A stretch of 64,000 nt of DNA from Bacillota bacterium (GTDB lineage: Bacteria; Bacillota; Dehalobacteriia; UBA4068; UBA4997): positions 3,473-67,472 of the forward strand of contig JAETNY010000011.1 of assembly GCA_021771915.1 (NCBI GenBank). The letters are read 5' to 3'. Numbering within the stretch: position 1 is the stretch's first letter; each line of letters opens with the position of its first letter. The translations under genes and the position numbers were made by a program. Shown here in pieces: positions 1 through 55,769 of this stretch. The notes under the pieces were generated by a model, which searched no databases, was not told the DNA's origin, and saw only the letters and a list, made by a program, of their open reading frames with translations.

Positions 1-836
1 GTTTCTTTTGAAATAAGCGGCTCATGAGTGTTATCCAATCTGATCCATTCTTCCGGCGGCTTGCGTATTTTGCTCTTATCCTTATAAGTACGATTGCCGG
101 TATAGTTCATAATCAGATTACCGATATAAACCTCATTATTAAGTATCTTACGAATAATTGCATACTGCCATAAACCGCCTTTAGCCGAAGGTATATGTTC
201 ATTATTCAGCAAAGCGGCAATCTTGGCATAGGCCATACCCGCCGCCCTTAATTCAAATATCCGTTGCACCACCAAGGAGGTTTGTTCATCTGGCACAAGC
301 TTGTGGCTATCCAAGCCGCATTTGCGGTAACCATAGGGCGGATTGCTGGAAATATACTGCCCACTGCGTTTTCTGGCGTTAAGCACCGATTGCATTTTTC
401 GGCTCAAATCTTTCAAATGATAATCGTTAAGAATACTGCGAAAATGCAGCATTGTGGTATCGTCCTCACTATCCAGAGAATCGACCACCGAAACGAAGCG
501 ACAACCCAAAGCCGGAAATATTTCCTCAGTGTAACGGCCAACCTCCACATAATCCCGGCCTAATCTGGATAAATCCTTAACCAGAATAAGATTGATTATC
601 CCGGCTTTAGCGTCCTCCAGCATTTGCCGAAATGCCGGCCGGTGAAAATTACCGCCGCTCCAACCGTCGTCGCAATACACTTTTGTTTCCAGCCAACCGT
701 GCATTGCAATGAATTTGCGCAAAAGCTCCTTTTGGTTTTCAATACTTACCGACGCGTTAAACTCGTTTATGCCCTTGGCGGTGAAATCGTCCATACTCAG
801 GCGGCAATATGCGCCAACTTTATATAGCTGCTGCAT
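1..836 (-). CDS. Large serine recombinase 2 (partial, runs off window start; absent from ORF track)
   Basis: Manual translation from ATG 836: MQQLYKVGAYCRLSMDD...SIENQ...YCDDGWSG...KDLSRLGR...PPYGY; overlaps the stop of the upstream recombinase. Confidence 0.92.
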   Translation of the reverse strand, partial: MQQLYKVGAYCRLSMDDFTAKGINEFNASVSIENQKELLRKFIAMHGWLETKVYCDDGWSGGNFHRPAFRQMLEDAKAGIINLILVKDLSRLGRDYVEVGRYTEEIFPALGCRFVSVVDSLDSEDDTTMLHFRSILNDYHLKDLSRKMQSVLNARKRSGQYISSNPPYGYRKCGLDSHKLVPDEQTSLVVQRIFELRAAGMAYAKIAALLNNEHIPSAKGGLWQYAIIRKILNNEVYIGNLIMNYTGNRTYKDKSKIRKPPEEWIRLDNTHEPLISKE

Positions 837-2484
837 AATTCACACCCTCGTCCGCCGTCAGGCAATCGTCAACATTGCCTACATAGCGATACACTATCTT
901 AATATCACGCATCGGCCCAAGCGGAGTTTGCGCCAACTCGCCAACCTCAATACGGTCAACCAGTTCAAACAAAATACTTTCGTCCAGCTTTTGCAGCTCC
1001 GTATACTGCCGGATTAAGGCCAGCCAGTGATTAACATCCTGACGAACGCCCTGCTTAACCTTAACTTTCTCCTGTAAATCTGGCAGCAAAGCGGCTTTTG
1101 CCGCCCGCTCCGTTTCATACTTCTGCATTAGCATTTGGAAAACGCCCGGCGTAATATCTCCATTATATTTATCCTCATAGAGATTTTGCATAAGCTTTTC
1201 CAATTCAGCCAATCTTTTGTTTACAGCTTTCAATTCCTGCTCCGCCGAGGCGATAAAACCCCGCTGCTCGCTCTCCTTGAGGTAAACCAGACGCTCCAGC
1301 AGGCCGTCATAATCATACTCAGCATACTGAGCTTTCTCCCGAATATCCGCCAATACTAATTCATAAAGAATTTCCTCGCCAATGCGATGACTTGTGCAGC
1401 CGCTTTTGCCGGTACGATAATATGAGCCGCAGAACAGATATTTCAGCGTTTTTTTCGTTCCGTCATTATATTTTTGATTGACGGTTTTATAAACCATTTT
1501 AAAACCGCAATCAGCGCAATATACCAAACCACAAAATAAATTATTATTGGTTTTGGCGTTAGATGTTTTACGCACTTTTTTCTGGCTAACCGCTTTTACC
1601 GTATGCCAAAGTTCTTGGCTGATAATCGGCTGATGGGTTCCCTCAACTCTAATCCATTCGTCCTCCGGCTTGTCCACCTGCTTACGGATTTTATAGGATA
1701 TACTTCCATGCTGTCCTTGCACCATATTGCCGATATAAGCCTCGTTCTCCAAAATGCACTTGATAGTATTATTAACCCAAAGACGATTGACCTTGCGATT
1801 ATCCGTCTTACCTTTACGCTGATAATACAGCGCGCCCGGCGGCAGAATACCGTCCGCATTAAGCGCCGCCGCAATACCGCAGTAGCTTTGCCCGGCAGCC
1901 CTAAGCGCAAATATCCGGCGCACCACTGGAGCAGTTTCTTCATCAATTACAAAATGGTGCTTATCCTCCGGGTCGCGCAGATAGCCATAGGGCGGAAAAG
2001 TTCCCATAAACATACCGTTTTCGGCGCAGGCTTTTTTCACCGCCTTAACCTTTTTACTGGTATCCCGGCAATAAAATTCATTAAACAAGTTCAAAAAGCA
2101 CATCACATCGTTGCTGCTGTCCTTGTTTAGCGTGTCAATGCCGTTGTTAAGGGCAATAAAGCGACAGCCGATACTTGGAAAAAGATAGTCGGTATACTGG
2201 CCGAACTCAATATAGTTGCGGCCAAAACGACTTAAATCCTTAACCAGAATTACATTGATTTTCTTGGCCTTGGCGTCCTCGATTAAACGCTTAACGCCCG
2301 GCCGGTTAAAGTTCGTGCCGGAATAGCCATCGTCGATATATACGTCAATTTCATTCCAGCCCCGCTCCCGAACATATTGCTGCAAAAGCAGCTTTTGATT
2401 TTCGATACTAACAGACTCGCCGTCCCGTTCATCATCATTGCTCAGACGGCAGTAGATGCCGACATTGTATGTTTCGTTAGTCAT
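820..2484 (-). CDS. Large serine recombinase (TnpX/TndX-like)
   Basis: YCRLS catalytic Ser, DDGYSG, KDLSRFGR, PYGY, Zn ribbon CADCG...C, coiled-coil C-terminus. Confidence 0.96.
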   Translation of the reverse strand: MTNETYNVGIYCRLSNDDERDGESVSIENQKLLLQQYVRERGWNEIDVYIDDGYSGTNFNRPGVKRLIEDAKAKKINVILVKDLSRFGRNYIEFGQYTDYLFPSIGCRFIALNNGIDTLNKDSSNDVMCFLNLFNEFYCRDTSKKVKAVKKACAENGMFMGTFPPYGYLRDPEDKHHFVIDEETAPVVRRIFALRAAGQSYCGIAAALNADGILPPGALYYQRKGKTDNRKVNRLWVNNTIKCILENEAYIGNMVQGQHGSISYKIRKQVDKPEDEWIRVEGTHQPIISQELWHTVKAVSQKKVRKTSNAKTNNNLFCGLVYCADCGFKMVYKTVNQKYNDGTKKTLKYLFCGSYYRTGKSGCTSHRIGEEILYELVLADIREKAQYAEYDYDGLLERLVYLKESEQRGFIASAEQELKAVNKRLAELEKLMQNLYEDKYNGDITPGVFQMLMQKYETERAAKAALLPDLQEKVKVKQGVRQDVNHWLALIRQYTELQKLDESILFELVDRIEVGELAQTPLGPMRDIKIVYRYVGNVDDCLTADEGVNYAAAI

Positions 2485-2558
2485 TATTTTACCTCCCGAC
2501 TATATCCATACGCTGTGCGGCAAAGTGGCTCTCATTCAAATATTGTTTGAATGATTTA

Positions 2559-2587
2559 ATTATAGCCCATCACTAACCGCAACGCAA
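2559..2587 (-). promoter_or_regulatory. SigA-type promoter of the recombinase pair
   Basis: Minus strand TTGCGT-17nt-TATAAT; 9-bp inverted repeat tcattcaaa/tttgaatga at 2532-2554 just downstream. Confidence 0.65.
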
Positions 2588-2626
2588 ACTTGTCATCGCC
2601 TATTCCGCAATTTTTTTAAAACTTTT

Positions 2627-2791
2627 TTAAGAAACATTTTCTCCGGCAGCAGCCGCAGCCATAACCTTACGAACGGCCAGCTGTTCCAAAGTTTCCGCTA
2701 AATTTTTTTCACCCGTGAAAACGCTGGTAACCCTATACAGCGTTCCACCAATTTTGACTTCTTTGTAGGAAGTCTGCTGTTTGTTTTCCAT
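2627..2791 (-). CDS. TnpW-family small transposon protein (54 aa, absent from ORF track)
   Basis: MENKQQTSYKEVKIGGTLYRVTSVFTGEKNLAETLEQLAVRK...; RBS ggagtg; usual position before serine recombinase. Confidence 0.8.
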   Translation of the reverse strand: MENKQQTSYKEVKIGGTLYRVTSVFTGEKNLAETLEQLAVRKVMAAAAAGENVS

Positions 2792-2854
2792 TGTTATCAC
2801 TCCAATATATCATTAAATCATAAAAAAGTATCACCCTTATACGAGGTTTGAATT

Positions 2855-3125
2855 ACAGGCCGCCCTTGGCAGGGCTGTCATAACTCCAAACTGCCGCTAT
2901 ATCACGAACAGCCCAGAGTTCCACCGCAAGTCTGTGGGTGGGCGTGAGCAAGTATCATTATCATTCGACCACATAATGTAATCCTTTGAACATTACACCG
3001 TCTTGGCGGTCAATTTGCCAAATTGATTTTCATAGTTTACGCTTATCGCTCGTTCATATATAAGGAAGTCTTGGCGGCGCATCCAGCGACTGGACTCCCT
3101 CCGGTCGCTATGTTTCGCTCGGGTG
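2855..3125 (-). ncRNA. Candidate structured RNA/cis element with two tandem CGAGCGA-hairpin-CGCCAAGAC modules
   Basis: GC-rich non-coding island, several hairpins, repeated motifs 68-69 nt apart; strand inferred from flanking genes. Confidence 0.5.
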
Positions 3126-3231
3126 TAACTTTTGTGCCTGCAATACAAAAATATTAAATTATCAAAGAACCGTTATAGAAAATTCCTCAAATTATACTCA
3201 AGAAATTTATCTCTCTATTAAATGCATCGTT

Positions 3232-3717
3232 TTAAGGCATTTTGTTAAGTAGTTTAGAAAAATTTTTTATAATTTTTTTCTTTGCTGCCGAAATAGAATA
3301 ATATATACTCACCCTTGATGTGCCGTCTAAATCTGCAATCTTACTTAAAGATAATCCCTCCACATAATACAACCACAAACGCCGGAACTGCTTTTCAGTC
3401 AAGCAAGCCTTAATCTTGGCTACAAATGCTTGCTGTTCCACATCATTCAAACCTTTTAACAAAACCTGTTCGGCAGATCTGGCATATTCCTCACCTAAAG
3501 ACTGCTCCTGCATTTTCTTCTGCAAGCGTTTATAGCTTTGCCCAGCGTTGTATTCCTGACGATACTCATCGTCAGACCACTCTTTCCAATGCAAAAATTC
3601 TTCCTCGCTGGCAAACTCATCTTTAGTAAGGCGGACAATCTCACCAGCCGCATTCTGGCAAACAATAGCCTCTTTATTGTTTTTATTCAAAGCATAGTCG
3701 CTCTTTTTGTTAAACAT
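3232..3717 (-). CDS. Sigma-70 region 4 HTH regulator (Tn916 Orf7-like)
   Basis: LTEKQFRRLWLYYVEGLSLSKIADLDGTSRVSIYYSISAAKKKI. Confidence 0.85.
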   Translation of the reverse strand: MFNKKSDYALNKNNKEAIVCQNAAGEIVRLTKDEFASEEEFLHWKEWSDDEYRQEYNAGQSYKRLQKKMQEQSLGEEYARSAEQVLLKGLNDVEQQAFVAKIKACLTEKQFRRLWLYYVEGLSLSKIADLDGTSRVSIYYSISAAKKKIIKNFSKLLNKMP

Positions 3718-4028
3718 AAAAAATCTCCTTTATTTTCAAAATCTCTTTTCTCAGAAACCTTGAAAACAAGGAGGAGAACGACAATTTATATTTTGTACTG
3801 TCTTTATGAATTGCAGTACACTATTATAGCTACAACGTTTCGTTGTACTGCACTGAAATTCACTATTGTAATTCTAATATTTTGCCACGGCTTTTCTTGC
3901 ATAATTCATCTCCATTAAACATTGATATGAACCAGAATAGATAATAAAAGCGCATTACAAAGAATTTAATTAAACTACAATATGTTGTAAAATATATCTA
4001 TTGTAGAATATATTTGGGGTGAATTAAA

Positions 4029-4388
4029 ATGCTGAATTATACCAAATCATTAGGTGAGGCTATAAAAAAAGCACGTCAAGAGCAAGGACTGACTCAAGCC
4101 CAATTAGCGGTAAAAGCCAATATTGATGTGCGTACAGTAATAAATATTGAAAAATTTAGAGGTAACCCCAAAATGGAAGTTTTATATCCTTTAGTTAAAG
4201 CGCTAAAAATAGATGCCAGAGAAATTTTTAATCCAGAAATGCAGAGAGAAACACCTGCGATTCAAAGACTGCGCTTTTTAATTGAAGATTGTAATGAGGA
4301 GGAGGCTATTGCTTTAGCTTCTATCATTCAATCTGTTTTAAATGTAATAAGACAAAAACAAGCAAAAAATAAGCAAAATCCCTTATAA
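4029..4388 (+). CDS. XRE-family HTH regulator
   Basis: IKKARQEQGLTQAQLA...IEKFRGNP; divergent from the sigma-like gene. Confidence 0.9.
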   Translation: MLNYTKSLGEAIKKARQEQGLTQAQLAVKANIDVRTVINIEKFRGNPKMEVLYPLVKALKIDAREIFNPEMQRETPAIQRLRFLIEDCNEEEAIALASIIQSVLNVIRQKQAKNKQNPL

Positions 4389-4396
4389 AACAAAAA

Positions 4397-4430
4397 AAGT
4401 CTGAACCCAAAATCAACTGGATTCAGACTT
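4397..4430. terminator. Hairpin between convergent genes
   Basis: aagtctgaa/ttcagactt stem preceded by an A-run. Confidence 0.55.
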
Positions 4431-4619
4431 ATTACTTCGTACCATTTTGAACTGTACCACATCAACTAATGTCTCTGTTTTACATTTACTGCAATAAAGA
4501 GGAAAATTGAGCATAACTGTATCAAAATATACGCCAACTTTAGTTTTAGCGCCACAGTTTGGGCAATAAGCCCAACGAAAATCATCTTTATCAGGGTTTT
4601 TCCCAGCCTTAATATTCAT
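4413..4619 (-). CDS. Cysteine-rich KTR domain protein
   Basis: CPNCGAKTK...NFPLYCSKCKTETL. Confidence 0.85.
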   Translation of the reverse strand: MNIKAGKNPDKDDFRWAYCPNCGAKTKVGVYFDTVMLNFPLYCSKCKTETLVDVVQFKMVRSNKSESS

Positions 4620-4707
4620 AAAAATAACACCTTTCCAACGATATTATTAACTCTGCGTCTTGCGTCCGGTTTTTCATAATATCGCATTTTTCAGATATTC
4701 AGATACC

Positions 4708-6483
4708 TTATTTAACCAATTTATTTAAATAAGACTGTGGATTAGCCCTTAATTCAGCATAGCTGCCCTGCTCAGCAACCTGCCCCTTATCCAAAACAAT
4801 AATCTCATTAGCCATATTGCTTATCTGCTGTATTTTGTGGGAAATCATCAGGCAAATTTTATCATGTGCCAACTCGGTATAAATTTTGACAATGTCATTC
4901 TGCGCGTTTATATCCAAAGCGGCGTCAGGCTCGTCAAAGATATAAAAATCACCGTTTTTCATTATCGTTCTGGCAATAGCAATCTTTTGCCATTCGCCCA
5001 TTGAAAGCTGCTTGCCGTCATCGAACCAATAGCCCAGCTGTGTTTCCAGCTTTTTCTCATCAAGCAGCCTGAAAGGGAAATTAACCGTAGTAAGAGCCTG
5101 CATTATCTTTTCATCGTTATCTAGGCTAGCAATATCCCCATAGGCCACGTTTTCTCTGACCGTGCTTTCGTATTTGGTAAAATCCTGAAACAATACGCTG
5201 GTTAAGCCATAAAAGGAATTTCGCTCAATATCTCGCAGCTCAATACCGTTAAACAAAATTTCTCCCTCATAATTATCATAGAATCCTAACAGCAGCTTAA
5301 TCAAAGTGGATTTGCCAGAGCCGTTATTACCCAAAATGGCCATTATACTGCCTTTGCACAGCTTAAAATTAACATTTTGCAGTGAATAATTAGAACTGTT
5401 GGGATATTTATAGAATAAATTCCGCACTTCAATTTCATCAATGGAATCCAGAATCTGTCCGCCGTTCTGGTCCTGTTCAGCCACCGGCAAATCCATAAAG
5501 TCAAAATACATTCCGGCAAACAACGCGTTTTTAGCTATTGTTGAAAAAACGCTAAATATAGACTTGATTTTGGCCCGCACGTTAAAAACGCTTCGGGTAT
5601 AAGTTATAACATCACCCACCAGAATAAGCTGCAAAACGCCTCTGGAGATAATATACAGCAAAATAAAGCCGGAAATAACATAATCTAAAAAATCTAACAG
5701 AAAATATGTAACCGTCGTCCGCTTCACTATCTGTATATCCTGCCGGATAAATCCCAGGTTCAGCTGCTTAAACCTGTTCAGCATAAAGTCTTTCAAACGA
5801 AAAATCTTAAATTCCTTTATGCCAACCCCTTGAGTAATCAGATAAGATATATACCACGATTTGCGTTCTTTAGTGGTTCTGGCCTTTTGGATATTATATT
5901 GCACCCGGCTAATATGCACTGAATAGGCATATTGAAGAACAGGCACAAAAATCACCGGCAGCACAATCCAGATATTAAAGGCGGCCAAAACAACCAGCAG
6001 CGAGCCAATTGAAAGCAGCGCCTGCGCTGTGCTGACAATGGAGCTAAAAAAAGTTATTATCTGGCTGTTACCCTGGTTTACCGCTCGATTAATCATATTA
6101 AATGTTTCAGTGTTCTCAAAATCCTCCATTTTCAAGGACAGCGCTTTGTCCAAAACGCTTAAAGTCAATTTCATATTCAAATCATAAGTTATCTTACTGG
6201 TATAAAAGCTATATATGGCGGATATCAAAGTGCTGAAAATATCAATAGAAACATAGATTATAAGCATAATAATTATTCTTTTCATATCGTTTAAATTCAG
6301 CTGTATCTGATTCAATATATCCTGCAAAACAACCAACGACACAGCCGGCAAAATACCCAGCAGAATATTTACCACAACTGTCAGCAGCATATATGCTTTG
6401 CTATATGAATAAATCAACTTTAGACATTTGAAAAAAACTGCTAATACCCCATTAATATTTTTCTTTTCTTCCACTTGTTTCAT
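4708..6483 (-). CDS. lanT: Lanthipeptide exporter, NisT/SpaT-like ABC transporter without peptidase domain
   Basis: N-terminal TMD; GNNGSGKST, LSMGEWQK, IFDEP; adjacent to lanC. Confidence 0.88.
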   Translation of the reverse strand: MKQVEEKKNINGVLAVFFKCLKLIYSYSKAYMLLTVVVNILLGILPAVSLVVLQDILNQIQLNLNDMKRIIIMLIIYVSIDIFSTLISAIYSFYTSKITYDLNMKLTLSVLDKALSLKMEDFENTETFNMINRAVNQGNSQIITFFSSIVSTAQALLSIGSLLVVLAAFNIWIVLPVIFVPVLQYAYSVHISRVQYNIQKARTTKERKSWYISYLITQGVGIKEFKIFRLKDFMLNRFKQLNLGFIRQDIQIVKRTTVTYFLLDFLDYVISGFILLYIISRGVLQLILVGDVITYTRSVFNVRAKIKSIFSVFSTIAKNALFAGMYFDFMDLPVAEQDQNGGQILDSIDEIEVRNLFYKYPNSSNYSLQNVNFKLCKGSIMAILGNNGSGKSTLIKLLLGFYDNYEGEILFNGIELRDIERNSFYGLTSVLFQDFTKYESTVRENVAYGDIASLDNDEKIMQALTTVNFPFRLLDEKKLETQLGYWFDDGKQLSMGEWQKIAIARTIMKNGDFYIFDEPDAALDINAQNDIVKIYTELAHDKICLMISHKIQQISNMANEIIVLDKGQVAEQGSYAELRANPQSYLNKLVK

Positions 6484-6498
6484 AACAAGACACCAAAA

Positions 6499-7848
6499 TC
6501 AGCTTATCAGCAAATGCTTTTCGTGCATTGAACCTGGATTAAATAAAGATAGCAAGGCTAATATAACGCCAGTAGTTCCATTCAAATAACTATCGTCGTC
6601 TTCCTCTGGCAAATCTTTCGGCCCATAATCAATGTTTTTGAAGCCATACTTAAAATCCGGATTATACAGGTTCAAAATCTCATCTAAACACATATATAAG
6701 CCAGGCAACAGTTCTTTAAACGATGTTTCTCTATATATCTGATTAAAAATAGCCATAGTGCCGGCAAAACCGTGACAAATAATAGGTGATAATAAATTGT
6801 AAAATCGCAAAGGCGTTTTTGAAATTATCTCCATATTACGTAAATATTCGCTGCCGTCTTTGCCTAGACATTTATACGCCTGATACAGCACACAGGAAAT
6901 GCCTATTGAACCATAACACCAACTCATACGCGTATCAGTTGCTGCCACATTTTGCTTTTTGTATAATTCTGCTGGCAAAATCATCGGCCAGTACATAATA
7001 TCGTTTTTTACTGTTTTATGTTCATCCATAACACTGATTAACTTTTCTATTGCCAGCTGCTGACTGTCAACAGAAATATTTCGTGCCGCAGAATAAGCCA
7101 TAAGGGCTAACGGCCCAGCAATGCCATGCGCCACGCCAAAATCCAAAGTCCCATGTAAATATTGCGTTCTGCGCTCCACCGGCCAGAGATTTTCATTCGT
7201 TACATAAAAACCGATAATTTCTTTATCTTCAACGGTAATATTTGCCGATTTTTTTACCAGATAGCGCAGGATTTGCACCAAAGCCTTTTTTTCAGTTGTA
7301 CAATCCTGTATATACCCCAAGCTTTCTATATACATAAGCAAGTATCTGCCCACGCCAGTCATACCGATAATTATATCATAGTGCTGCACCAGTGTGTTTT
7401 CATTCTCTATTTTGGTTAACTTTGTCATTGTTAAATCACAAACAATTTTATTTAATGATTTAAGAAATTTACTAAATTCACCTGATTTAATCGTTACACC
7501 CAAAAGAGCAAAAGCCATATCTGTTAAACCATGAAAAAGGGCTAAACTATCATAATGCTCTATATTTTTCTTAAAATAAACTAATATATTATATACATTG
7601 TTTAGCCAGCGTTTTTTTTCAAGCAAGAAATCATAGCCATCGCCAATCGCCAACAAGTACGAAGCCAATAAATGACCGTCTATACAATCTCTGTCCTGTT
7701 TCCACATATTCTGTTCATTAGCTGCTAAGTCCTGCAAAACGCCGTCAATTCGGTTATAATAGGCTTCTAATATATCTATGATTTTTTGTTTCTGCTGCTC
7801 ATCTAAAGGAGCCATATTTTGATTAAAAAGTTCTTTATTTAACATCAT
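6499..7848 (-). CDS. lanC: Lanthionine cyclase
   Basis: GVAHGIAG, SWCYG, ICHG Zn-ligand motifs. Confidence 0.95.
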   Translation of the reverse strand: MMLNKELFNQNMAPLDEQQKQKIIDILEAYYNRIDGVLQDLAANEQNMWKQDRDCIDGHLLASYLLAIGDGYDFLLEKKRWLNNVYNILVYFKKNIEHYDSLALFHGLTDMAFALLGVTIKSGEFSKFLKSLNKIVCDLTMTKLTKIENENTLVQHYDIIIGMTGVGRYLLMYIESLGYIQDCTTEKKALVQILRYLVKKSANITVEDKEIIGFYVTNENLWPVERRTQYLHGTLDFGVAHGIAGPLALMAYSAARNISVDSQQLAIEKLISVMDEHKTVKNDIMYWPMILPAELYKKQNVAATDTRMSWCYGSIGISCVLYQAYKCLGKDGSEYLRNMEIISKTPLRFYNLLSPIICHGFAGTMAIFNQIYRETSFKELLPGLYMCLDEILNLYNPDFKYGFKNIDYGPKDLPEEDDDSYLNGTTGVILALLSLFNPGSMHEKHLLIS

Positions 7849-10800
7849 TAAACTGCGCTCCTTTTTTTACATTGCTCGCGTCATGCAGCAACATATTACT
7901 TTTGGTAAAAATAGCATGTCTAGTTAAAAATGACACCTTATGTTCCCACTCACGATTACCGTCATATCTATTGCAGAACATATGGATTAAGGTTAGCAAA
8001 ATATTGTCTATACTGTTAGCGAGCTGCCCAGTTGCCTCTACCTGTTTAATCTGCCGCGCATATTGTTGAATAACCGCTGTTCTCTCCTCAGCAATGCGCT
8101 GAACTTTGGCTGAAAAATTTTTAATATAGTTATCTTCTATCGCATTTAGATAGTCCTTTTTCTGTTTGCGGAATACCTCTTTATATTTAATATTATCCAT
8201 ATATTTAACAAAAAAATCATTAGTTGCCTGTATACCATCATAAAAACAGCCAACCAAATTTTGCATAACCCAAATACCAATTTTCTCCCGCTGAATTTCA
8301 CCTGCATTCTTACTTATTTCTTGTAGCAAGGCAATAACGAATCGACTATCATAGCAAAAATAATTTTCAGCATATCTGATTAGATTTGAACCACCATATC
8401 TCTCAATTTCTCTTTCATATTGAGAAATAATATATTCATAGCTAATCAGATTTTCCTGCAACAAATTAAACCATTCTCTAAATTTCTGCATAATCTCGCC
8501 CAACTTATCTGGCTTTGTAATTTGCAACCGCAGGCGAATATGATATTTAGGATCAGCATACTTTATGAAAAAAAATTTTTTTATAATCGACTGATAAAAC
8601 ATATCATCAATAAACGGTTCCAGATATTTTGCCAAAAAGGTAGAAGCCTGCATTTTATTTACATATATTTTAAAATATATCCACCCCTCGTCTCCTGGAT
8701 ATAGCACTCGATCAGGCGTATAAAAACTAGACAATACATTTCTTACTGCATAAAAGGAACCAGAAGTATTCTCATTTGCACTAGAAATATGCTCCTGCAA
8801 ATCAACCCTGAAAAATGGAACGCTGAATTCCGCAGCATAAAATCTATGCTTCTCGTCCTTAACTAAAGAAGTCGAAATATTTTCATATTCCATTCTCTCT
8901 AAAACGACTTCCTTTCTTTGCTTAACCAATGCTCTATATAGCAATTTAAAAGTAAACTCATTTTCCAAATCCAACACTAACCGATTATCCATATGAGCAT
9001 AATACACATACTTAGGTAACTTCCAAATTTGCAGGTATTCTTTTAGCTCCGTTGCAAACTGGTCCAATAATTTGCCTGTGAACTGTTCAGGATCCAAGCG
9101 CCATTTTTCATTAGACAGAACAATATTGCCAAATTTAATTTTAGGGCAGTAAGCATATTTCATACTTTGCAACATAAATAAATTTTGAATCGGCGACACC
9201 TCATAAGTAGCAGAAATACTGCGTAAAAAACGAATAACCGGATTGCTGGAAAAAACATTATACATACTGTTTGTTATAAACTTCACTCTTTTTTGCAAGG
9301 ACTTAGACCAAATAAACATCTGATTTTTTTTGGGATCATGCCCCAAGTACAAATCATTCAGATTTAACGAAGTGTTATGCTCAAACTCAGTGATACCTAG
9401 ATACAAATTATGATCATACTGACGCTTATAGCTGTACAAATTGGTATTTCTCAAATAATGAGAGACTTCATAAACATCTGCAATAACATAATCTTCACTA
9501 TGATGTAGCTTTTCTCGTCTATATATTTCGTCCATTTCCTGCGAGAAATCAGTATTCAGGGCACTGTCAAAGCGACTGATACCATTACCAGCTTGAGCAG
9601 AGCCTACATTTGGCCCAATGTATATTTCATAACCGGTATCTGCATTGGTAACAAATACGTTTAAGCTGTATGAACTAGCATAATTCAATTTAGCCATTTC
9701 CTCACTATCTATGGCCTTTATGGTTTCAATATCTGCATCTGTTATTTCCACAACAGATCGTCCTTGCCGAAGCGCAGTCATTATTTTATTTTCTAGCATT
9801 CCTTTTATAACATTTAATTTTCTATATGCGTGCCGAGAATTTCCACCTTCTGCTGCTTCAGCCATATACCCATTATATGGTAATCCCAAACCAATATCTG
9901 TGTCAATCACCTCGGTTAGAGGGATTAATGCGTCAGAACCATACTTTACCATAAAAATATTCTTAAAGGCTTGCAACTTCTCGTCTTCATTATATGGCGT
10001 AGCTAGACTCATCATAAAGTCTGAGAATTCTTCCAATTCATTTTTAATTTTAATATCCAACTTGTTATTTTCTGAATCCAATTTCAAAATTGTATAAATA
10101 TAATTCTTGGCCTTAACCACCTGTTCCATAAGCCCGGTTAGGCTTGCCAAAATTTCTTCTCCCTTACCAAACTGCGCCTTAGCATATTCCTCACGCAACT
10201 TGTCTATCTCAACCAATTTATCTATAAGAGCCTGTTCCTCCGCCAGCAAATCTATAAACTTATTGTTTTGCAGCAGGCTGTGCAGCGGATCATCTTCCTT
10301 TGATAATACACAGATATTTGTATATATGTATTCATTTTGCAACAACTCTTTTAAGAATTTGTCAATAATTTTCTGCGGCACATTGGGGTTTTTGGCAAAT
10401 AAAAAGTTGCGCAAATCCTTAAAAGGCACAAAATCGGCGGCAAACTCCCGTACATAATCCACCTGTTTGGTATATTTGATACTTAAATCCTCGGCATGTT
10501 CAACATTTTCCTTGCGCAAGTTAGAGCAATAACAGTTTTTCAAACGAGATTTTGCCTTATAGCAATGCTTATTAAAAATTACCTGCAAATTCAGCAACAA
10601 GCCCGGCATTTCCTCAATTTTCTTTACCAGCTTAAAATACCACTCGTTATCGACCCGGCAAATTTTATGGTATTGCTCTTGCCCAGCCAAGCAAATATCC
10701 GTACCCTCACTACTGAACTCCGCCGTAGCCACACCAGCAAAAAGGCCATATGGCGTTGGTCTAGCAGTCATTCTACCATAATATTTTTTAACCGACTCAA

Positions 10801-11005
10801 TCATTCTATCTGTGGTTTTAGTTGAGCTATCTGCATACATTTTATATAAATCCTGCGAGGCAATAGCCACTGCCTCGGCAAATAGTTCATCTTGCCGGCA
10901 GAAAGCCATAACCTCATCATCTGCCAGTTTTGCAAAATCATAAAATTCATTCAAACTTCTGGCAGGACAACGCATCAATACATGGTTTGCCGCTTGATAC
11001 TGCAT
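7835..11005 (-). CDS. lanB: Full-length lanthipeptide dehydratase
   Basis: RMTARPTPYGLFAG; WIYFKIY, FFIKYADP..HIRLR, YEREIERYGG, HMFCNR; ATG 11005 follows RBS gaggtg. Confidence 0.96.
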   Translation of the reverse strand: MQYQAANHVLMRCPARSLNEFYDFAKLADDEVMAFCRQDELFAEAVAIASQDLYKMYADSSTKTTDRMIESVKKYYGRMTARPTPYGLFAGVATAEFSSEGTDICLAGQEQYHKICRVDNEWYFKLVKKIEEMPGLLLNLQVIFNKHCYKAKSRLKNCYCSNLRKENVEHAEDLSIKYTKQVDYVREFAADFVPFKDLRNFLFAKNPNVPQKIIDKFLKELLQNEYIYTNICVLSKEDDPLHSLLQNNKFIDLLAEEQALIDKLVEIDKLREEYAKAQFGKGEEILASLTGLMEQVVKAKNYIYTILKLDSENNKLDIKIKNELEEFSDFMMSLATPYNEDEKLQAFKNIFMVKYGSDALIPLTEVIDTDIGLGLPYNGYMAEAAEGGNSRHAYRKLNVIKGMLENKIMTALRQGRSVVEITDADIETIKAIDSEEMAKLNYASSYSLNVFVTNADTGYEIYIGPNVGSAQAGNGISRFDSALNTDFSQEMDEIYRREKLHHSEDYVIADVYEVSHYLRNTNLYSYKRQYDHNLYLGITEFEHNTSLNLNDLYLGHDPKKNQMFIWSKSLQKRVKFITNSMYNVFSSNPVIRFLRSISATYEVSPIQNLFMLQSMKYAYCPKIKFGNIVLSNEKWRLDPEQFTGKLLDQFATELKEYLQIWKLPKYVYYAHMDNRLVLDLENEFTFKLLYRALVKQRKEVVLERMEYENISTSLVKDEKHRFYAAEFSVPFFRVDLQEHISSANENTSGSFYAVRNVLSSFYTPDRVLYPGDEGWIYFKIYVNKMQASTFLAKYLEPFIDDMFYQSIIKKFFFIKYADPKYHIRLRLQITKPDKLGEIMQKFREWFNLLQENLISYEYIISQYEREIERYGGSNLIRYAENYFCYDSRFVIALLQEISKNAGEIQREKIGIWVMQNLVGCFYDGIQATNDFFVKYMDNIKYKEVFRKQKKDYLNAIEDNYIKNFSAKVQRIAEERTAVIQQYARQIKQVEATGQLANSIDNILLTLIHMFCNRYDGNREWEHKVSFLTRHAIFTKSNMLLHDASNVKKGAQFNDVK

Positions 11006-11027
11006 AATAATCACCTCGTTAATTTAG

Positions 11028-12209
11028 TTAATCATATCTTAAAGCGTCTATCGGCTCTAAACGGGCGGCTCTGTTAGCTGGCAAAAAGCCGAAAACAACG
11101 CCCAAACCAACCGAAACGCCAAAGGATAACAAAATCGAATCCACCGCCAGCATAAAGGGTAAATTCATAACCTGACAGGCAACGAAACCGACCGCTGTGC
11201 CGGCAGCAATCCCTAGCAGGCCGCCCACGGCGCTGGTGCTGGCAGCTTCGATAATGAATTGCAGGCGAATATCACTGCGCCTTGCCCCGAAAGACTTGCG
11301 CACGCCAATCTCTTTAGTGCGCTCCTGCACAGAAACCGACATAATATTCATAATGCCCACGCCGCCCACCAGCAGCGCAATACCAGCAATTGCTTTCAGC
11401 ACCGAAAGCATACCGCTCTGCATAGATAACATCATTTCCATACGCTCCTTTTGGCTGGTTACGTTAAAATAATCATCTTTTTCGTAACATTCCAGCAGGC
11501 TCTTTTCAATCGCCGCCACCGCCTGCTCCGAGCAGTCCCGGCTCACTGAATTAAGATTGAAGCTGCTCACAAAAGGCGTTTCGCCTAGCTTCAGCACGTT
11601 AGTGTAAGGAATATAAACCACATCATCAGCGCTGCCTGCGCCAGTTTCCAATTCGCCAAAGCTATTAAGCACGCCAACAACCGTATAATTTCTGCCCCGT
11701 ATTTTCAACGTACCGCCCAATGCCGCACCGTTCATAATCTCCTCGGCCACAAAACGCCCCACCACGCAGACGCTGGCGCGGCGTTCAATATCCATATACT
11801 GCAAAAAATCACCCTCGGCCACTTCCATAAGCTGGGTTTGAGGATAGGCCTCGCTGACCCCGGAAATAACCGTCTGCATATAACGCTTATTTCCGTATTT
11901 AACGCCGCCGCCCAAGCCCACAATCGGACTTAAATCACAGAGCAGGGTAGGATTATTGCTCACCAACTCATACATATCCGAAACCGTAATCCGTCTTGTA
12001 GAATCCCTGTTATAGATATTAACGCTAATCATATTTGCGCCCATATTGTCAAACTGCGCCTCCACCTGCGCCAACGTGCCCCGGCCAATGGTCATAATCA
12101 CAATAACCGCCGCCACGCCTACAATAATACCCAGCATAGTCAGCAAAGAGCGCATTTTGCGTGCCAACAGGCTTTTCAGAGCCATTACAAAGGCTTGCCG
12201 AATATCCAT
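11028..12209 (-). CDS. MacB/FtsX-type ABC permease
   Basis: RSLLTMLGIIVGV, GGVGIMNIM..ERTKEIG, PANRAARLEPIDALRYD. Confidence 0.93.
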   Translation of the reverse strand: MDIRQAFVMALKSLLARKMRSLLTMLGIIVGVAAVIVIMTIGRGTLAQVEAQFDNMGANMISVNIYNRDSTRRITVSDMYELVSNNPTLLCDLSPIVGLGGGVKYGNKRYMQTVISGVSEAYPQTQLMEVAEGDFLQYMDIERRASVCVVGRFVAEEIMNGAALGGTLKIRGRNYTVVGVLNSFGELETGAGSADDVVYIPYTNVLKLGETPFVSSFNLNSVSRDCSEQAVAAIEKSLLECYEKDDYFNVTSQKERMEMMLSMQSGMLSVLKAIAGIALLVGGVGIMNIMSVSVQERTKEIGVRKSFGARRSDIRLQFIIEAASTSAVGGLLGIAAGTAVGFVACQVMNLPFMLAVDSILLSFGVSVGLGVVFGFLPANRAARLEPIDALRYD

Positions 12210-12937
12210 TATTCCGCCGCCACAACCGCCTCCGGCGCGTCTGCCGTTCCGTCATAAACAATTTTGCCGTCCTCAAGCCGAATAATTCGCTGTGCCTGCC
12301 GGGCAATGGCGTTATCGTGAGTAATCAGCACCACCGTACGCCCCTCAATATTCAGCTGCTTCAAATAAGCCAAAATCTCCCGACCAGTTTGGCTGTCCAA
12401 TGCACCGGTGGGCTCGTCCGCCAAAATCACCGCCGGCTCGCCAGCCAAGGCTCTGGCAATCGCCACCCGCTGCTGCTGACCGCCGGAAAGCTGATTCGGC
12501 ACATTCTGCGCTTTATCCGCCAGCCCCACCTGCTCCAACAGTTTCAGCGAGCGTTTGTGCCGCTCTCCTGCGGGCATACCGGCGTATAGCATTGCCAGTT
12601 CCACATTCTCGCAAAGGTTCAGCTTGGGTATTAAATTATACTGCTGGAAAATAAAGCCCAGCGTTTTGTTACGCAGTTTGGCCTTGGCATTATCGTCCAT
12701 ACTTAAAACATCTGCCCCGGCCAGATGATAACTGCCGGAGGTGGGCTTATCCAAACAGCCGATGATATTCATACAAGTGGATTTGCCGCTGCCGGAGGCC
12801 CCCACAATCGCCGCAAACTCGCCTCGGCGTATTTCCAAGCTTACGCCGTCCAAAGCGTGAACCGACGTTTCCCCAGTTTGATAAATTTTATATACATCTT
12901 GCAATTTGATGAGAACATCGTTATTTTGTTCATTCAT
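12209..12937 (-). CDS. MacB/LolD-type ABC ATPase
   Basis: GASGSGKST, LSGGQQQRV, ILADEPTGALD. Confidence 0.95.
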   Translation of the reverse strand: MNEQNNDVLIKLQDVYKIYQTGETSVHALDGVSLEIRRGEFAAIVGASGSGKSTCMNIIGCLDKPTSGSYHLAGADVLSMDDNAKAKLRNKTLGFIFQQYNLIPKLNLCENVELAMLYAGMPAGERHKRSLKLLEQVGLADKAQNVPNQLSGGQQQRVAIARALAGEPAVILADEPTGALDSQTGREILAYLKQLNIEGRTVVLITHDNAIARQAQRIIRLEDGKIVYDGTADAPEAVVAAE

Positions 12938-12955
12938 TAACTGTATACTCCTTGA

Positions 12956-14437
12956 TTAGTTTTCGGCTGTGCCGACTGCTCCTGTCGGAATGACTATTTT
13001 CTCGCCCTCCTGCACGCCGGAAACAATTTCTACATAATAATCATCATTCATACCCAACTCTACCTGCCGCCAAGTATAGCCCGGCAAATCGCTTGGCTGT
13101 CCCTCCGAACCCTCGACCAGCAGCATATTGCCCCGGCTTACGGCGTTCATCGGCACAACCAGCACATCTTCTGCCTGCTGCAAAACCACCTCGGCGTTGA
13201 CGTTCATACCCGGCAACAGTGCGCCGAACTCGTCCAGCGTTACAGTAATGGGGTAAGTGGTAACGCCGTTGCTGCTGTTGCCTTTAATGCTGATTTTGCT
13301 GACATAGCCTGCAAACTCTTGCCCCTGCAAAGCATCAGCCACCACCTGCACCGGCTGGCCAACTTTAATCAGGCCGATGTCCAGTTCGTCAACGTTCATC
13401 ACAAATTCCAGTTTGCTCATATCGTAGATAACTGCCATTTCGCTGGCGTTATTATTACTGTCGATTGTGTCGCCCTGCTCGAATTTCTTTTCAATCACCG
13501 TCCCAGCAATCGGCGAAGTGATTGTGTAATACGCCAGCGCCGCCTGTGCGTTATCCTGCTCAATTCTGGCTCGGCGCAGGTCATTTTCCAAACTATCGTC
13601 AGATAAACGAATAAGCGTCTGGCCTTTCTGCACACGCTCGCCCTCGCTCACCAGAATTTCCGCAACATCGCCGCTAGCTTTGGCTAAAATCTGCTCACTA
13701 TAATTATATTCCAGCAGACCACTGCGCACACTGGTAAAACCGCCAGCATCGGCCGCCGCCCAATCCCCCTCCTGCAAACTGCCGGGATTTTCAACAGCAA
13801 TAGTTAATTTATGGGTCAGCACGCCGCCGGAGCTTACCTGTTCCACACTGGAAATTGCCTTAATCGTGCCGCTGATACGCTGACCGTCGTTTTCCAAAAT
13901 AACCTCTGCGGCCTGCCCAACTTGCAGCTGCTCGGCTTCGTCAGTTTTGAAAGGCGCGTCCAGCAGCATAATATCCCGGTCGCGCAGATACAAAAGCTGA
14001 CTGCCCACATTCACGCTGTCGCCAGTCTCGCAATGGACTGTTACGACCTGACCAGTCTCCGGCGCAGTTACATTCAATTCCGCAATCTCTGTTTCGGCTT
14101 CTTGCAAGTTAAGTCGAGCCAGATTATAGCTGTTTTGCGCCCGGCCTGCGTCTATCTGATATAGCAGCTGCCCGGCTTCAATCATATCCCCCTCGCTAAA
14201 GGGTGCGCTTAAAACATCGCCGGTAACCAGCGCCTTAACGGTATAGGAGTTCACCGGCTGCACAGAGCCTACGCCCTCCATAATTGAGATAATAGAGCTG
14301 CGTTCCACTAATTGATAGCGATACGCCGGACTTTCCGCATTTTGCGCTCTATCCTGCCGGCCAACAAACCACCAAATTGCAATTCCCGCTATTATTAGCA
14401 ACAAGATAGCAATTACAATTTTTTTCCTTTTTAACAT
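12956..14437 (-). CDS. Membrane-fusion/adaptor protein (MacA/YknX-like)
   Basis: N-terminal TM anchor, repeated lipoyl-like motifs (VSEGERVQKGQ, ITSPIAGTV), LLPGMNV. Confidence 0.9.
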   Translation of the reverse strand: MLKRKKIVIAILLLIIAGIAIWWFVGRQDRAQNAESPAYRYQLVERSSIISIMEGVGSVQPVNSYTVKALVTGDVLSAPFSEGDMIEAGQLLYQIDAGRAQNSYNLARLNLQEAETEIAELNVTAPETGQVVTVHCETGDSVNVGSQLLYLRDRDIMLLDAPFKTDEAEQLQVGQAAEVILENDGQRISGTIKAISSVEQVSSGGVLTHKLTIAVENPGSLQEGDWAAADAGGFTSVRSGLLEYNYSEQILAKASGDVAEILVSEGERVQKGQTLIRLSDDSLENDLRRARIEQDNAQAALAYYTITSPIAGTVIEKKFEQGDTIDSNNNASEMAVIYDMSKLEFVMNVDELDIGLIKVGQPVQVVADALQGQEFAGYVSKISIKGNSSNGVTTYPITVTLDEFGALLPGMNVNAEVVLQQAEDVLVVPMNAVSRGNMLLVEGSEGQPSDLPGYTWRQVELGMNDDYYVEIVSGVQEGEKIVIPTGAVGTAEN

Positions 14438-14450
14438 TTTTATAAATTCC

Positions 14451-17661: not shown

Positions 17662-17676
17662 AACAAAACCCCCCTC

Positions 17677-52342: not shown

Positions 52343-52378
52343 AAAAAAGGGACAGAAAAATAAAACTTTCTATCCCTT
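52343..52378 (-). terminator. Intrinsic terminator after parB
   Basis: Minus strand aagggatagaaa/tttctgtccctt (G-U pair) followed by T-run. Confidence 0.72.
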
Positions 52379-53411: not shown

Positions 53412-55769
53412 TTATGCTGCTAAACATTCTTCACAGCCGAGAGCCACCTCACCGCAAAGCCGCATAAATACAGGCTTTTTAACTCTTTGATTTATTTTAT
53501 CTTCTTTCCGCAAATTGAAAATGTTGTTCTTGGTATAGCTCATCATTTCCTCTGCAACGTCAGTATCACGGATAGAAGATTCAGCGTCCTGAATGTTCTC
53601 GCGCATTACAGACAGGTTGTTGCTGGTATGGTCCAGACGGTTGCTCAAAGCGCCCAATGTACCACGAACAGAGGATACACTGTTGATAGCGTCTTTGATT
53701 ACGTTAATCGCAGCCTTTGCGCCCTCGGCAGTGCCAATATTAATACCGTCAATGCCCAAAGAAGCAGTGTGCATATCCTTAACGGAAACAGCCAGCTGGT
53801 TGAAATCATCAGATGTATCGCCAATCTGTAATGTCAAGGCACGACCCTCATAGCTATTGCTGGAAAGCTCAACCTTAGCGCCAATACGCTGTTCCTCAAC
53901 ATCAGTACCACTAATATCCTTGGATGTCAGGGTCATCTTGTTCCCATCGATTGTAACATTATACTTGGTAGCAGAACCACCAAAGGCCAAGTTTTTATTA
54001 ATAGCATTCTTCAATTCTATCAGAACATCATTAGTATTATATTCCGGAACTGTGCCGCCATTAGCCAAACCGAGTTTGGAAAGGTTAACAACAATATTTT
54101 GCTTCCCACCGGTTGCATTATCACCGTCAGTAAATTCAAAGGTTACACCATCAATAGTGATAGTATCGCCCTCTTTAATTTTAGTAACGTCCAGTTCAAA
54201 TGATACGCTGGCGGCTGCTTCTTTACTTGTACCAAAGAACTGCTTCATAACGCCGGCCTCTGTGCGCATATCGCAAACTGTACCCGTAGTACCGCCACCA
54301 ATATAGGCTGGATGATTTGCCGCAGAATTTGTATCACCATCATATGTGGAAAGAGATTGGAAAGTCAAAGTACCTTTACCGCCACTTACGCCGCCGTTAC
54401 CAACAGACCAGGTATTATTTTTATTGGTTTCATTAGTAGCGTTTTGATTTACAACGGAACCCATTTCGCCAACAATTTTAACCATAGCCGCAGCTTGTTT
54501 ATCTGCATCTAATAAATCAGCTTCGGTCTTGAAAATGTCTGTTAAATCAATAGTCTTCTTGCCACTGGTGCCATCATTAGCTGCCGTATTCAAACTGTCC
54601 AGTTTGAAATCATATTTCATATCGCCAACGTTCAGCGTATCGCCGTCTTTCAGCTTACTGAAATCAAGGTCAACGCTAACCTGCGCCTGATGTGTAGCGC
54701 CAATACCAATACCCGTCTTCGTATTTTGAACTTTCCAGTTCAAAGTACCGGTATCATCAGTGTTCTTAGCTTTCATTTCCACATCAAAATCCGGGTGAAT
54801 TGTGGTTCCTGCATCCTTACCCATCCAGTCAACCTGAGTAAAGGTTACAGTATTTCCAGCAGCAGACATTGCATAATAATGACCATCAATTTTTACATAA
54901 TTACTAGCAGGACTACCAGAGCCAGCCGCTAATCCGGCTTCCCAGTCAGCAGCCGTGCCTGCATCTGTTGTCATATCGGCTTTATTATCGGACTGATGCT
55001 TAATTGCATTAGCAGTTGTCTGCTTCATACCTGACTTAGCCAACTGCGCAGCAATATCACTTGCCGTCATAGCCTTGCCGGCAGAAGCAGCTTTAACCTC
55101 AAGCGTGGCGTCGCCGATTTTTACTTCCAAAGTTGCAGTAGTAGCCGCAGATTTTGGCTGAACAGCGGTTTTATCATCAAAAGTAATTTTGAACTGAGCA
55201 TTTTGCTGTTTAGTTGCAGCTTCCGGGCGATTGGTTATATAAGTAGCTTCAAAAGCATCGCTCGGGCGGTCTTCAGCCATATAATCAGTTGTGATAACAT
55301 TCTGGATTGCACTGCCCGCACTGATGTTAGCGGTACTTTCAGCGTCCAGAGAGCCGTCCAACAGCTTAATGCCGTTGAAGTTGGCGCTGTCAGCGATACG
55401 GTTAATTTCATCGCGCAGCTGGTCAACTTCAGCCTGCAAATTCTTGCGGTCAACCTCGTTGTCGAAAGTGCCGTTGGCAGATTCAGTTGCCAGATAAACC
55501 ATACGGTTCATCATGTCCTGAATTTCCTGCATAGCGCCCTCGGCAGTGTTTACCAGAGAGATGCCGTCCTTAACGTTCTTCTGGGCAGCTTCCAAACCGG
55601 TAATCTGAGCGCGCATTTTTTCGGAGATAGCCAGACCGGCAGCGTCATCGCCAGCGCGGTTAATCTTGTAACCAGATGACAATTTCTCCAGGTTTTTGCT
55701 CAAAGCAGAAGTGTTCTTGTTGTAGTTACGATAGGCGTTCATCGCCATAATGTTGTGTTGAATACGCAT
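53412..55769 (-). CDS. fliC: Flagellin with large variable domain; native C-terminus replaced by 35 ICE-encoded residues
   Basis: MRIQHN, LSSGYKINRAGDDAAGLAISE; ESSIRDTDVAEEMMSYTKNNI then unrelated sequence. Confidence 0.95.
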   Translation of the reverse strand: MRIQHNIMAMNAYRNYNKNTSALSKNLEKLSSGYKINRAGDDAAGLAISEKMRAQITGLEAAQKNVKDGISLVNTAEGAMQEIQDMMNRMVYLATESANGTFDNEVDRKNLQAEVDQLRDEINRIADSANFNGIKLLDGSLDAESTANISAGSAIQNVITTDYMAEDRPSDAFEATYITNRPEAATKQQNAQFKITFDDKTAVQPKSAATTATLEVKIGDATLEVKAASAGKAMTASDIAAQLAKSGMKQTTANAIKHQSDNKADMTTDAGTAADWEAGLAAGSGSPASNYVKIDGHYYAMSAAGNTVTFTQVDWMGKDAGTTIHPDFDVEMKAKNTDDTGTLNWKVQNTKTGIGIGATHQAQVSVDLDFSKLKDGDTLNVGDMKYDFKLDSLNTAANDGTSGKKTIDLTDIFKTEADLLDADKQAAAMVKIVGEMGSVVNQNATNETNKNNTWSVGNGGVSGGKGTLTFQSLSTYDGDTNSAANHPAYIGGGTTGTVCDMRTEAGVMKQFFGTSKEAAASVSFELDVTKIKEGDTITIDGVTFEFTDGDNATGGKQNIVVNLSKLGLANGGTVPEYNTNDVLIELKNAINKNLAFGGSATKYNVTIDGNKMTLTSKDISGTDVEEQRIGAKVELSSNSYEGRALTLQIGDTSDDFNQLAVSVKDMHTASLGIDGINIGTAEGAKAAINVIKDAINSVSSVRGTLGALSNRLDHTSNNLSVMRENIQDAESSIRDTDVAEEMMSYTKNNIFNLRKEDKINQRVKKPVFMRLCGEVALGCEECLAA

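Follow-up and report, generated by a model that had tools for sequence, protein, structure and literature searches.

The window, which is the whole 64-kb stretch of DNA that was analyzed, contains an RNA element on its minus strand that belongs to an ICE of about 54 kb integrated in a flagellin gene. Specifically, an 11-bp core is present at window position 53528 inside the flagellin gene and again at contig position 2670 (contig C18) beside the flagellin 3' end; the gene is split in its 3' part with the last codons separated, and short inverted repeats flank both cores. Excision would restore the flagellin gene and could switch flagellin form or motility. In the direction of flagellin, the ICE carries parB, a putative replication gene, VirD4, a VirB6-like gene, VirB4, a topoisomerase gene, an SNF2/methylase gene and MobC plus a relaxase, and continues with a lantibiotic cluster, a sigma-r4-like gene, the RNA element, a weakly assigned tnpW-like ORF and two large serine recombinases. 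Most ICE genes are co-directional with flagellin, and the transfer genes, the sigma-like gene, the RNA and the recombinases all have the same direction. The RNA element follows the sigma-like gene, precedes the recombination genes and is co-directional with the transfer genes across the circle junction. VirD4 and VirB4 both pass their NCBIfam cutoffs. The large serine recombinases, the MOBP-type relaxase and the CD1110/CD1115-type (Tn1549-like) VirB4 and VirD4 set this ICE apart from Tn916.

A preliminary description of this DNA had placed the element between a sigma-like gene and tnpW, an arrangement that we also find, but both gene assignments are weak. The sigma-like protein matches sigma70_r4_2 at E 4e-5, which is below the Pfam cutoff, and it matches only sigma70-r4 and YlxM-like models. 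Its identity to Tn916 Orf7 is 27% over 64 aa (E 3e-4), it has a long N-terminal part with no assigned function, and no match to it was obtained in 400 genomes of the phylum besides its own. No Orf8/Sig8 (HTH_16) was recognized among the window ORFs that were scanned, and the pXO2-34 domain of ConAn1 was not found in the protein upstream of the RNA. The features of the element and its surroundings are listed here by window coordinates.

3232..3717, minus: sigma-70 region-4-like gene (161 aa), directly upstream of the RNA; weak relative of Tn916 Orf7/Sig7
3159..3170, minus: boxA-like motif GTTCTTTGATAA, ~60 nt past the stop codon of the sigma-like gene; predicted site for loading of NusB-S10
3137..3144, minus: P0 5' strand, closes the whole RNA with 2859-2852; 8/8 pairs in the window copy, 8/8 family pairs change on both sides
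2852..2859, minus: P0 3' strand, partner of 3144-3137
3122..3128, minus: P1 5' strand, partner 2999-2993; 7/7 pairs in the window copy, with family covariation
3116..3121, minus: outer predicted k-turn, non-bulged strand (first CGAGCG of the preliminary description)
3082..3107, minus: 26-nt hairpin insertion in P2, with no counterpart in four paralogs; similar to a repeat found between genes in related genomes
3068..3076, minus: inner predicted k-turn, bulged strand CGC-CAA-GA-C (k-turn definition of PMC5061560)
3053..3067, minus: P3 hairpin capping the inner predicted k-turn; ~3 bp in the window copy, 4/4 family pairs covary
3047..3052, minus: inner predicted k-turn, non-bulged strand (second CGAGCG of the preliminary description)
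3031..3042, minus: P2 3' strand, partners 3081-3077 and 3112-3108
3010..3026, minus: P4 hairpin, 7 bp, 3-nt loop
3000..3008, minus: outer predicted k-turn, bulged strand
2963..2988, minus: 26-nt hairpin insertion between P1 and the S3 motif; the C3 paralog has a longer insertion at the same place
2951..2963, minus: 13-nt S3 motif equal to canT +281..+293, with the canT(S3) loss-of-function bases at 2961-2959; the pemK and dinG models of Rfam begin with it
2860..2950, minus: divergent 3' multi-hairpin domain where a pemK/dinG domain would be; three hairpins common to 7 other subfamily members
2627..2791, minus: small tnpW-like ORF, weak assignment (E 0.054)
820..2484, minus: large serine recombinase 1
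from 836 off the window edge, minus: large serine recombinase 2
52347..52378, minus: predicted intrinsic terminator after parB at the far ICE end, likely equivalent of Tn916 T1
53518..53528, minus: 11-bp attachment core in the flagellin gene; twin at contig position 2670, outside the window start

Several other features of this region were observed. A strong 14-bp hairpin with a U-tract (4397-4430) is located between a Cys-rich KTR gene and a convergent HTH gene and likely insulates the sigma-like gene from cargo transcription; the same order of KTR, HTH and sigma genes is present in Tn925. The lantibiotic-type cargo (4708-15938, minus strand) codes for a LanB dehydratase, a LanC cyclase and ABC transporters, along with a candidate precursor of 60 aa that is rich in Cys, Thr and Ser (15756-15938) and has no Pfam or NCBIfam match. 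A similar transporter lies near the C3 copy of the element. The transfer region contains a RelB-family antitoxin gene with an adjacent small ORF that is probably a RelE/YafQ-type toxin (44900-45671), and another mobile element, located after guaA at 59675-63028, has genes for an HTH protein, a tyrosine integrase and an AAA_25 protein.

Extent and repeats of the RNA element

The element spans about 3170-2850 on the minus strand, from the boxA-like motif at 3170-3159 to the closing helix formed by 3144-3137 and 2859-2852, and is larger than the 2855..3125 interval first assigned to it. The two CGAGCGA...CGCCAAGAC repeats that drew attention to this interval are read directly from the window sequence at 3121-3068 and 3052-3000, and this pattern occurs nowhere else in the 2.3-Mb genome (two occurrences in total; reversed control 0). 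All of the hairpins named at that time are present (~3085-3109; 3026-3010 with 7 bp; GCCCT-GCCA-AGGGC), but the first of the two hairpins said to distinguish the repeats is a 26-nt insertion (3107-3082) that is missing from four other copies of the RNA in the same genome. A third GCCAAG, also proposed as a repeated motif, reads GCCAGG, GCTAGA, GCCAGG and GCCATG in these four paralogs and is therefore not conserved.

Folding-energy z-scores were -2.0 for 2820-3235 and -1.7 to +0.6 for six sub-regions. With thermodynamic stability this weak, the case for structure rests on covariation among homologs. Direct DNA searches recovered little. A blastn search of the region against 72,556 plasmids gave only eight short, chance-level matches and did not retrieve canT, and the DNA query matched three of 71 other genomes of the class, two of these solely via the inserted repeat. 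A strict pattern was present in at least six of 401 phylum genomes, and this pattern misses the window genome's own copies. A looser pattern scan of genome contigs gave 119 stretches, and the 80 of these that were listed came nearly all from GC-rich unrelated genomes and were not used. Metatranscriptome contigs from four runs of one study cover 1-8000 flatly at a depth of ~1-12, and are uninformative on transcription, strand or ends.

The element as a homolog of Tn916 canT

According to Wirachman and Grossman (2024; PMC11658703), canT of Tn916 is a cis-acting, orientation-specific and processive antiterminator that is independent of other Tn916 genes. In Tn916, transcription from the promoter Porf7 covers orf7, orf8, canT, xis and int, and in the circular form it goes on into the transfer genes (PMC11658703). 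As the Tn916 copy of canT we used Tn925 from pCF10, where the S3 bases are found at the published offset. Local alignment of the Tn925 orf8-xis interval with the window element gave a score of 120, a value reached by none of 1000 dinucleotide shuffles (80.7 +/- 8.9). Five motifs are collinear between canT and the window element, one of them a 13-nt identity that contains the S3 bases (2961-2959). By sequence comparison the window element is a divergent, collinear homolog of Tn916 canT. The resemblance extends to the same covarying helices and to the location, since in both elements the RNA is flanked by a sigma-r4 gene and the recombination module and precedes the circle junction. The differences are that the window ICE has no orf8 between the sigma gene and the RNA, and that its RNA has a divergent 3' domain and two insertions. 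Two other Rfam matches of Tn925, SQ2397 upstream of orf7 (L003:13143-13372) and Enterococcus sRNA_0030 upstream of the tet(M) leader (L003:16034-16198), are absent from the window.

The preliminary description had proposed an RNA that acts in cis and, once the element has excised, permits transcription to read through into the transfer genes by antitermination. This proposal gains strong support, by analogy, from the homology to canT and from the same element position, and we regard it as likely that the window element acts in cis as a processive antiterminator.

A three-motif pattern returned at least 118 metagenome loci plus 66 viral-collection loci (at least 184 together), and 174 of the 184 listed loci had enough flank to be grouped into 63 clusters at 92%. 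A covariance model was seeded with 53 of the 63 listed clusters, none of them from the window genome and one of them a Tn916 canT copy. This model recovers exactly five copies in the window genome and scores canT at 96 bits and the four paralogs at 40.9-69.6 bits, while the window copy is matched in two pieces of 36.2 bits (E 4.5e-5) and 19.2 bits. Zero matches were obtained in pLS20 1-45000 and pCF10 1-20000, which cover the conAn regions, or in three rrn loci.

The gene neighborhood is likewise shared across this family. The largest nearby upstream ORF, assessed for 49 listed clusters, is a sigma70-r4 gene in 29, an Orf8-like HTH_16 gene in one, Rep_trans in two, another gene in five and unassigned in 12, and some homologs sit after Rep_trans or HTH_3 genes rather than sigma-r4. 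Among 53 listed clusters the largest downstream ORF codes for an integrase, recombinase or excisionase in 37 cases, PemK in four, ParA in one and an HTH protein in one; two more carry a helicase C2 domain (DinG-like, a label that is inferred) and eight are unassigned. Every one of the five copies in the window genome follows a paralog of the sigma-like gene and precedes a recombinase or integrase module. The sigma-like gene and the RNA are thus a regulatory module that is swapped between element types inside one genome. The four paralog copies (genome G000) are at C21:35979-36321, C31:55302-55634, C13:180275-180596 and C3:52755-53177, and three of them are linked to serine recombinase modules, each a different one, and the fourth to a tyrosine integrase module.

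Individual homologs show further settings. One metagenome copy (L199) has a host lysyl-tRNA synthetase gene on one side and a parA gene on the other, a position that may begin an element's operon instead of preceding a recombinase. Two others (L328, L165) are directly 3' of Rep_trans relaxase/replication genes, with a nearest large ORF that is not sigma-like, which suggests use by mobilizable elements. In the window copy the insertion at 3082-3107 resembles short intergenic hairpin repeats in the related genomes G004 and G008 (L124, L125, L127, L128, L130), and the longer C3 insertion (near 52990-53060) looks by eye like another unit of such repeats. Such hairpins may form a small family of mobile repeats that insert where a structured RNA tolerates them.

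The tight linkage to sigma-r4-like genes (29/49 listed clusters, 5/5 in the window genome), together with the long N-terminal part of the sigma-like protein whose function is unassigned, could be read as a bipartite system in which this protein binds the RNA as a processivity factor, much as in the conAn system of pLS20-type plasmids. An RNA-plus-element-protein model of this type had been suggested at the outset, and we now regard it as highly improbable. The canT antiterminator needs no element protein (PMC11658703), and in Tn916 the upstream promoter has been described as the target of a split sigma factor made up of Orf7 and Orf8 (bioRxiv 10.64898/2026.10.01.756105). Moreover, the covariance model has no match in pLS20 1-45 kb or pCF10 1-20 kb, and the homologs that follow Rep_trans or HTH_3 genes do not fit this linkage. 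The likeness to conAn (ConAn1 plus conAn2, PMC8191782) is that both are cis, RNA-based systems for processive antitermination of Gram-positive conjugation operons. By contrast, conAn requires ConAn1 for processivity and is located at the operon start, not across an excision junction. Homology to conAn2 itself was considered and rejected, as no sequence or covariance-model similarity was found.

A covariation-supported fold with two predicted k-turns

An alignment of 67 sequences (median core identity 52%) was analyzed for covariation. The top 33 MI-APC pairs, which were obtained blind to structure, all lie within nested helices, and the mutual-information pairs define a closing helix P0, a long-range helix P1, helix P2, the P3 hairpin and the pemK junction. 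Changes on both sides are observed for 41 of 47 pairs, counted on the alignment that yielded the structure. With this structure 88.9% of cells pair, relative to 63.1% in shuffled and 38-43% in slid controls, values that are biased in favor of the structure since it was derived from the same alignment. On the minus strand, which is the strand of the element, G-U cells number 187 and A-C cells 92. The covariation among the homologs supports a model in which they fold as one multi-helix structure.

Because MAFFT misplaces P1 and the 3' domain of the window copy, the pairing of this copy was checked by hand. The window sequence forms 8/8 pairs of P0 (3144-3137/2859-2852), 7/7 of P1, 5/5 of P2b and 7/7 of P4, and only three of P3. 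In this fold the two repeats are not separate units; rather they are halves of two nested predicted k-turns, the inner one formed by 3076-3068 with 3052-3047 around P3 and the outer one by 3121-3116 with 3008-3000. Each predicted k-turn has three G-C pairs, a 3-nt bulge and then G.A, A.G and C.C, and in the window copy both motifs agree with the standard k-turn sequence definition (canonical helix, 3-nt bulge, G.A, A.G) given in PMC5061560. The outer k-turn was outside the search pattern, and its A2b and A1n are present in 61/63 listed homologs, with G1b in addition in 53/63; 26/63 are fully standard. In the 63 listed clusters the inner k-turn shows no variation, and neither does the S3 motif, because both were the search pattern. 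By the rule in PMC5061560, a C at position 3b predicts that these modeled k-turns would undergo ion-induced folding. The host genome contains two L7Ae-family genes.

The earlier parse into two side-by-side units fares less well. Its pairing shows no covariation, though its helices are nearly invariant and power is low, and the nested fold beats it by 2-10 kcal/mol in 5/5 genome copies when the k-turn helices are enforced. The nested model can also be set against published canT alleles. When mapped on the fold, the 162-nt canT deletion loses the 3' strands of P2, of the outer k-turn and of P1, plus the S3 motif and most of the pemK domain. As modeled, the covariation-supported fold accounts for both the canT S3 and the 162-nt deletion alleles.

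With its two 26-nt insertions, a P3 of few pairs and a 3' domain that scores too low for Rfam (see below), the window copy may be impaired. In one rival reading it would be a decayed member of an antiterminator family, with the insertions and a P3 of ~3 bp blocking folding and the ICE no longer fully transferable. The split model match, which is lower than those of the paralogs, and an unconstrained MFE that is 6 kcal/mol below the nested fold are both in line with decay. Nevertheless, nothing is lost from the boxA-like motif, the S3 motif, P0, P1, P2, P4 or either predicted k-turn, and each insertion is a self-contained hairpin, with the C3 paralog also carrying an insertion at the second site. 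In addition, the nested fold is still better than the swapped pairing, and VirD4 and VirB4 remain above their cutoffs. We consider such decay quite unlikely.

The 3' domain and the Rfam pemK and dinG motifs

The whole window has no Rfam match at the gathering threshold. Below it, the window copy matches the pemK motif (RF02913) at 2961-2878 with 16 bits (E 3.4; gathering threshold 34.8), the first 12 model positions being identical; the dinG motif (RF03082; gathering 46.9 bits) has no match in the window. The picture differs for the homologs, as 20 that were picked by eye from the 63 listed clusters and run against Rfam all gave matches above threshold, 19 to pemK and one to dinG, and canT itself matches pemK with 55 bits. 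This indicates that the two orphan motifs are 3' domains of the canT family. Among the homologs, L287 and L344 reach the gathering threshold of dinG. The four same-genome paralogs and three subfamily loci are below the pemK threshold. Both Rfam models start at the S3 motif, which the window copy shares, and both are partial models that cover just the 3' 61-87 positions of an RNA of ~290 nt. As to novelty, which a match in Rfam had been expected to remove, the window copy itself stays below threshold but the 3' domain of its family is already in Rfam as pemK/dinG.

The Rfam output assigns no function to either motif and types pemK as Cis-reg and dinG as sRNA. These labels, and the position of family members 5' of integrase, recombinase, PemK, DinG-like or ParA genes, are what a local cis-regulator of the next genes would show, be it an attenuator, a riboswitch-like leader or an sRNA; here these genes would be the tnpW-like ORF and the recombinases. 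Such a role is very doubtful, as the downstream genes have no common metabolic theme and no sense-strand terminator follows the RNA. Furthermore, canT mutants excise normally and lose transcripts past T1, and canT is inactive in trans (PMC11658703).

A boxA-like motif at the 5' end

A boxA-like motif, which was not part of the search pattern, is found just 5' of P0 across the family. A regex composed after inspection of the family alignment columns matches 50 of 61 listed clusters at -110 to -40, with 0 matches in 10 control windows (the reverse strand and nine flanking windows, 45-61 sequences each) and at most two in shuffles. Seven of eight additional loci carry a match, although four of the eight are close to sequences already used. 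Within 18 kb of Tn925 there is one sense-strand match, at canT +121, and in the 64-kb window there are three minus-strand matches, one of them at 3170-3159. As no rRNA operon is assembled in the window genome, rrn leaders of relatives were used for comparison, and 12 of 12 leaders from 10 related genomes match the regex. The window motif matches the Bacillota rrn boxA consensus, and the host genome contains NusB-family genes. NMR has shown that NusB binds the rrn boxA consensus of B. subtilis, AUGAUCUUUGAAA (PMC13753749). Regarding the conAn regions, a single regex match is present 3' of a putative prgR in pCF10 (L350:9285-9296), which is chance level, and there is none in pLS20 2000-3500.

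In half of the family this site reads TTGACA, which is a perfect -35 hexamer. A sigma-A-like -10 at the right spacing is present in just 1/50 motif-bearing clusters, however, and the reading as a sigma-A promoter was rejected; a promoter for an alternative sigma factor may still exist at this site. A nearby complement of the motif occurs in 2/50, a scarcity that is expected of a single-stranded protein site, and the motif has no covarying partner among the top mutual-information pairs.

Evidence against a strict need for the motif comes from canT itself. An active 452-nt canT reporter fragment begins at +126 (PMC11658703), and since the G of the canT boxA is at +121 this fragment cuts the motif and lacks its 5' five bases; some shorter fragments are also active (PMC11658703). 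An intact native boxA is thus not needed in the short-range B. subtilis assay. The canT authors propose direct polymerase contact (PMC11658703), and 11/61 listed clusters miss the regex. Taken together, canT-type antitermination might proceed by RNA alone through direct polymerase binding like HK022 put, with the boxA-like motif as an accessory, an RNA-processing site or a -35 for the element's own sigma. We view this as unlikely, while giving it more weight than the other alternatives. Against it, conservation exceeds the hexamer and agrees with rrn leaders (G at -5 in 56/56, C at -2 in 54/56, AA at +10/+11), and neither the rarity of a sigma-A-like -10 nor that of a nearby complement is in its favor. 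HK022 put and the Bacillus EAR RNAs do resemble the window element as cis RNA antiterminators without an element-encoded protein, and differ in being smaller than RNAs of conAn2 size (PMC11658703, PMC8191782). No put or EAR family was detected in Rfam scans of the window and the homolog loci.

The reading of the motif as a NusB-S10 loading site likens the window RNA to rrn and lambda nut, as a boxA-like motif opens a long untranslated RNA and matches both the rrn leaders of relatives and the NusB-binding consensus. It differs in that a large structured RNA follows instead of boxB or pre-rRNA, in its mobile-element setting, and in that the window RNA, with its predicted NusB site, would act on intrinsic terminators, judged by canT.

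Predicted terminators and the proposed mechanism

Past the circle junction, terminators are predicted at 52378-52347 (after parB), 49762-49740 and ~44992, which is at the ICE end and within the transfer operon. A script listed 15 sense-strand terminator candidates, several of them loose, and none lies between the RNA and the near end of the ICE.

The proposed mechanism starts from sequence features, namely a sigma-like gene, RNA, recombinases and transfer genes that are co-directional in a ~54-kb ICE within a flagellin gene. By comparison with Tn916, a promoter upstream of the sigma-like gene would transcribe this gene, the RNA, the tnpW-like ORF and the recombinases. The nascent RNA is predicted to expose boxA and to fold into a multi-helix body that is closed by P0 and kinked at two nested k-turns, and the folded RNA, with its pemK-like 3' domain, is predicted to modify RNA polymerase. 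In the integrated state, the predicted terminators after parB and further on would shield the transfer genes from the co-directional flagellin promoter. In the excised state, the modified polymerase would cross the attachment site and read through these terminators into VirD4, VirB4 and relaxase. As a whole, this model of a cis processive antiterminator that probably loads host NusB-S10 via boxA, with a k-turn-bent body that contacts polymerase or Nus factors, appears probable to us, if clearly less assured than antitermination as such.

A broader proposal can be advanced more tentatively, as one that may well prove incorrect. In this proposal canT would be the founder of a class of ~290-nt antiterminator RNAs with two k-turns, widespread among the ICEs and related elements of Bacillota, that hijack the host rRNA antitermination complex via boxA against intrinsic terminators, without an element-encoded N-like protein; the pemK and dinG motifs would be interchangeable 3' domains and the window element a third subtype.

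Discussion

canT is already known, and Rfam lists some of the family under different names. The canT paper leaves structure and mechanism open, does not recognize canT in several related elements, makes no mention of Rfam, pemK, boxA, NusB or covariation, and gives no consensus structure or k-turns (PMC11658703). Similarly, the conAn paper does not mention boxA, NusB, Rfam, pemK or Tn916 (PMC8191782), and the main text of Weinberg 2017 (PMC5737381) does not mention the pemK and dinG motifs, which its supplement may describe. We found no literature that joins canT, the pemK/dinG motifs, k-turns and boxA, in a search with thin coverage of subscription journals. The role proposed here has a close precedent, and the covariation-supported fold, the breadth of the family and the NusB prediction together make the open mechanism directly testable. 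Specifically, antitermination is predicted to depend on boxA and on host NusB.

Post-excision read-through is the switch for transfer in Tn916, an important vehicle of tetracycline resistance. With the present results the family covers elements with serine recombinases as well as ones with tyrosine recombinases, and two orphan Rfam motifs gain a candidate function. If the prediction is true, NusB of Gram-positive bacteria would also act outside rRNA operons, the host range of ICEs could be influenced by their compatibility with host Nus factors, and the contact between the RNA and NusB would be a candidate point to block conjugation. It is thus likely that mobile elements of this kind borrow the host's own antitermination machinery to switch on their transfer genes after excision.
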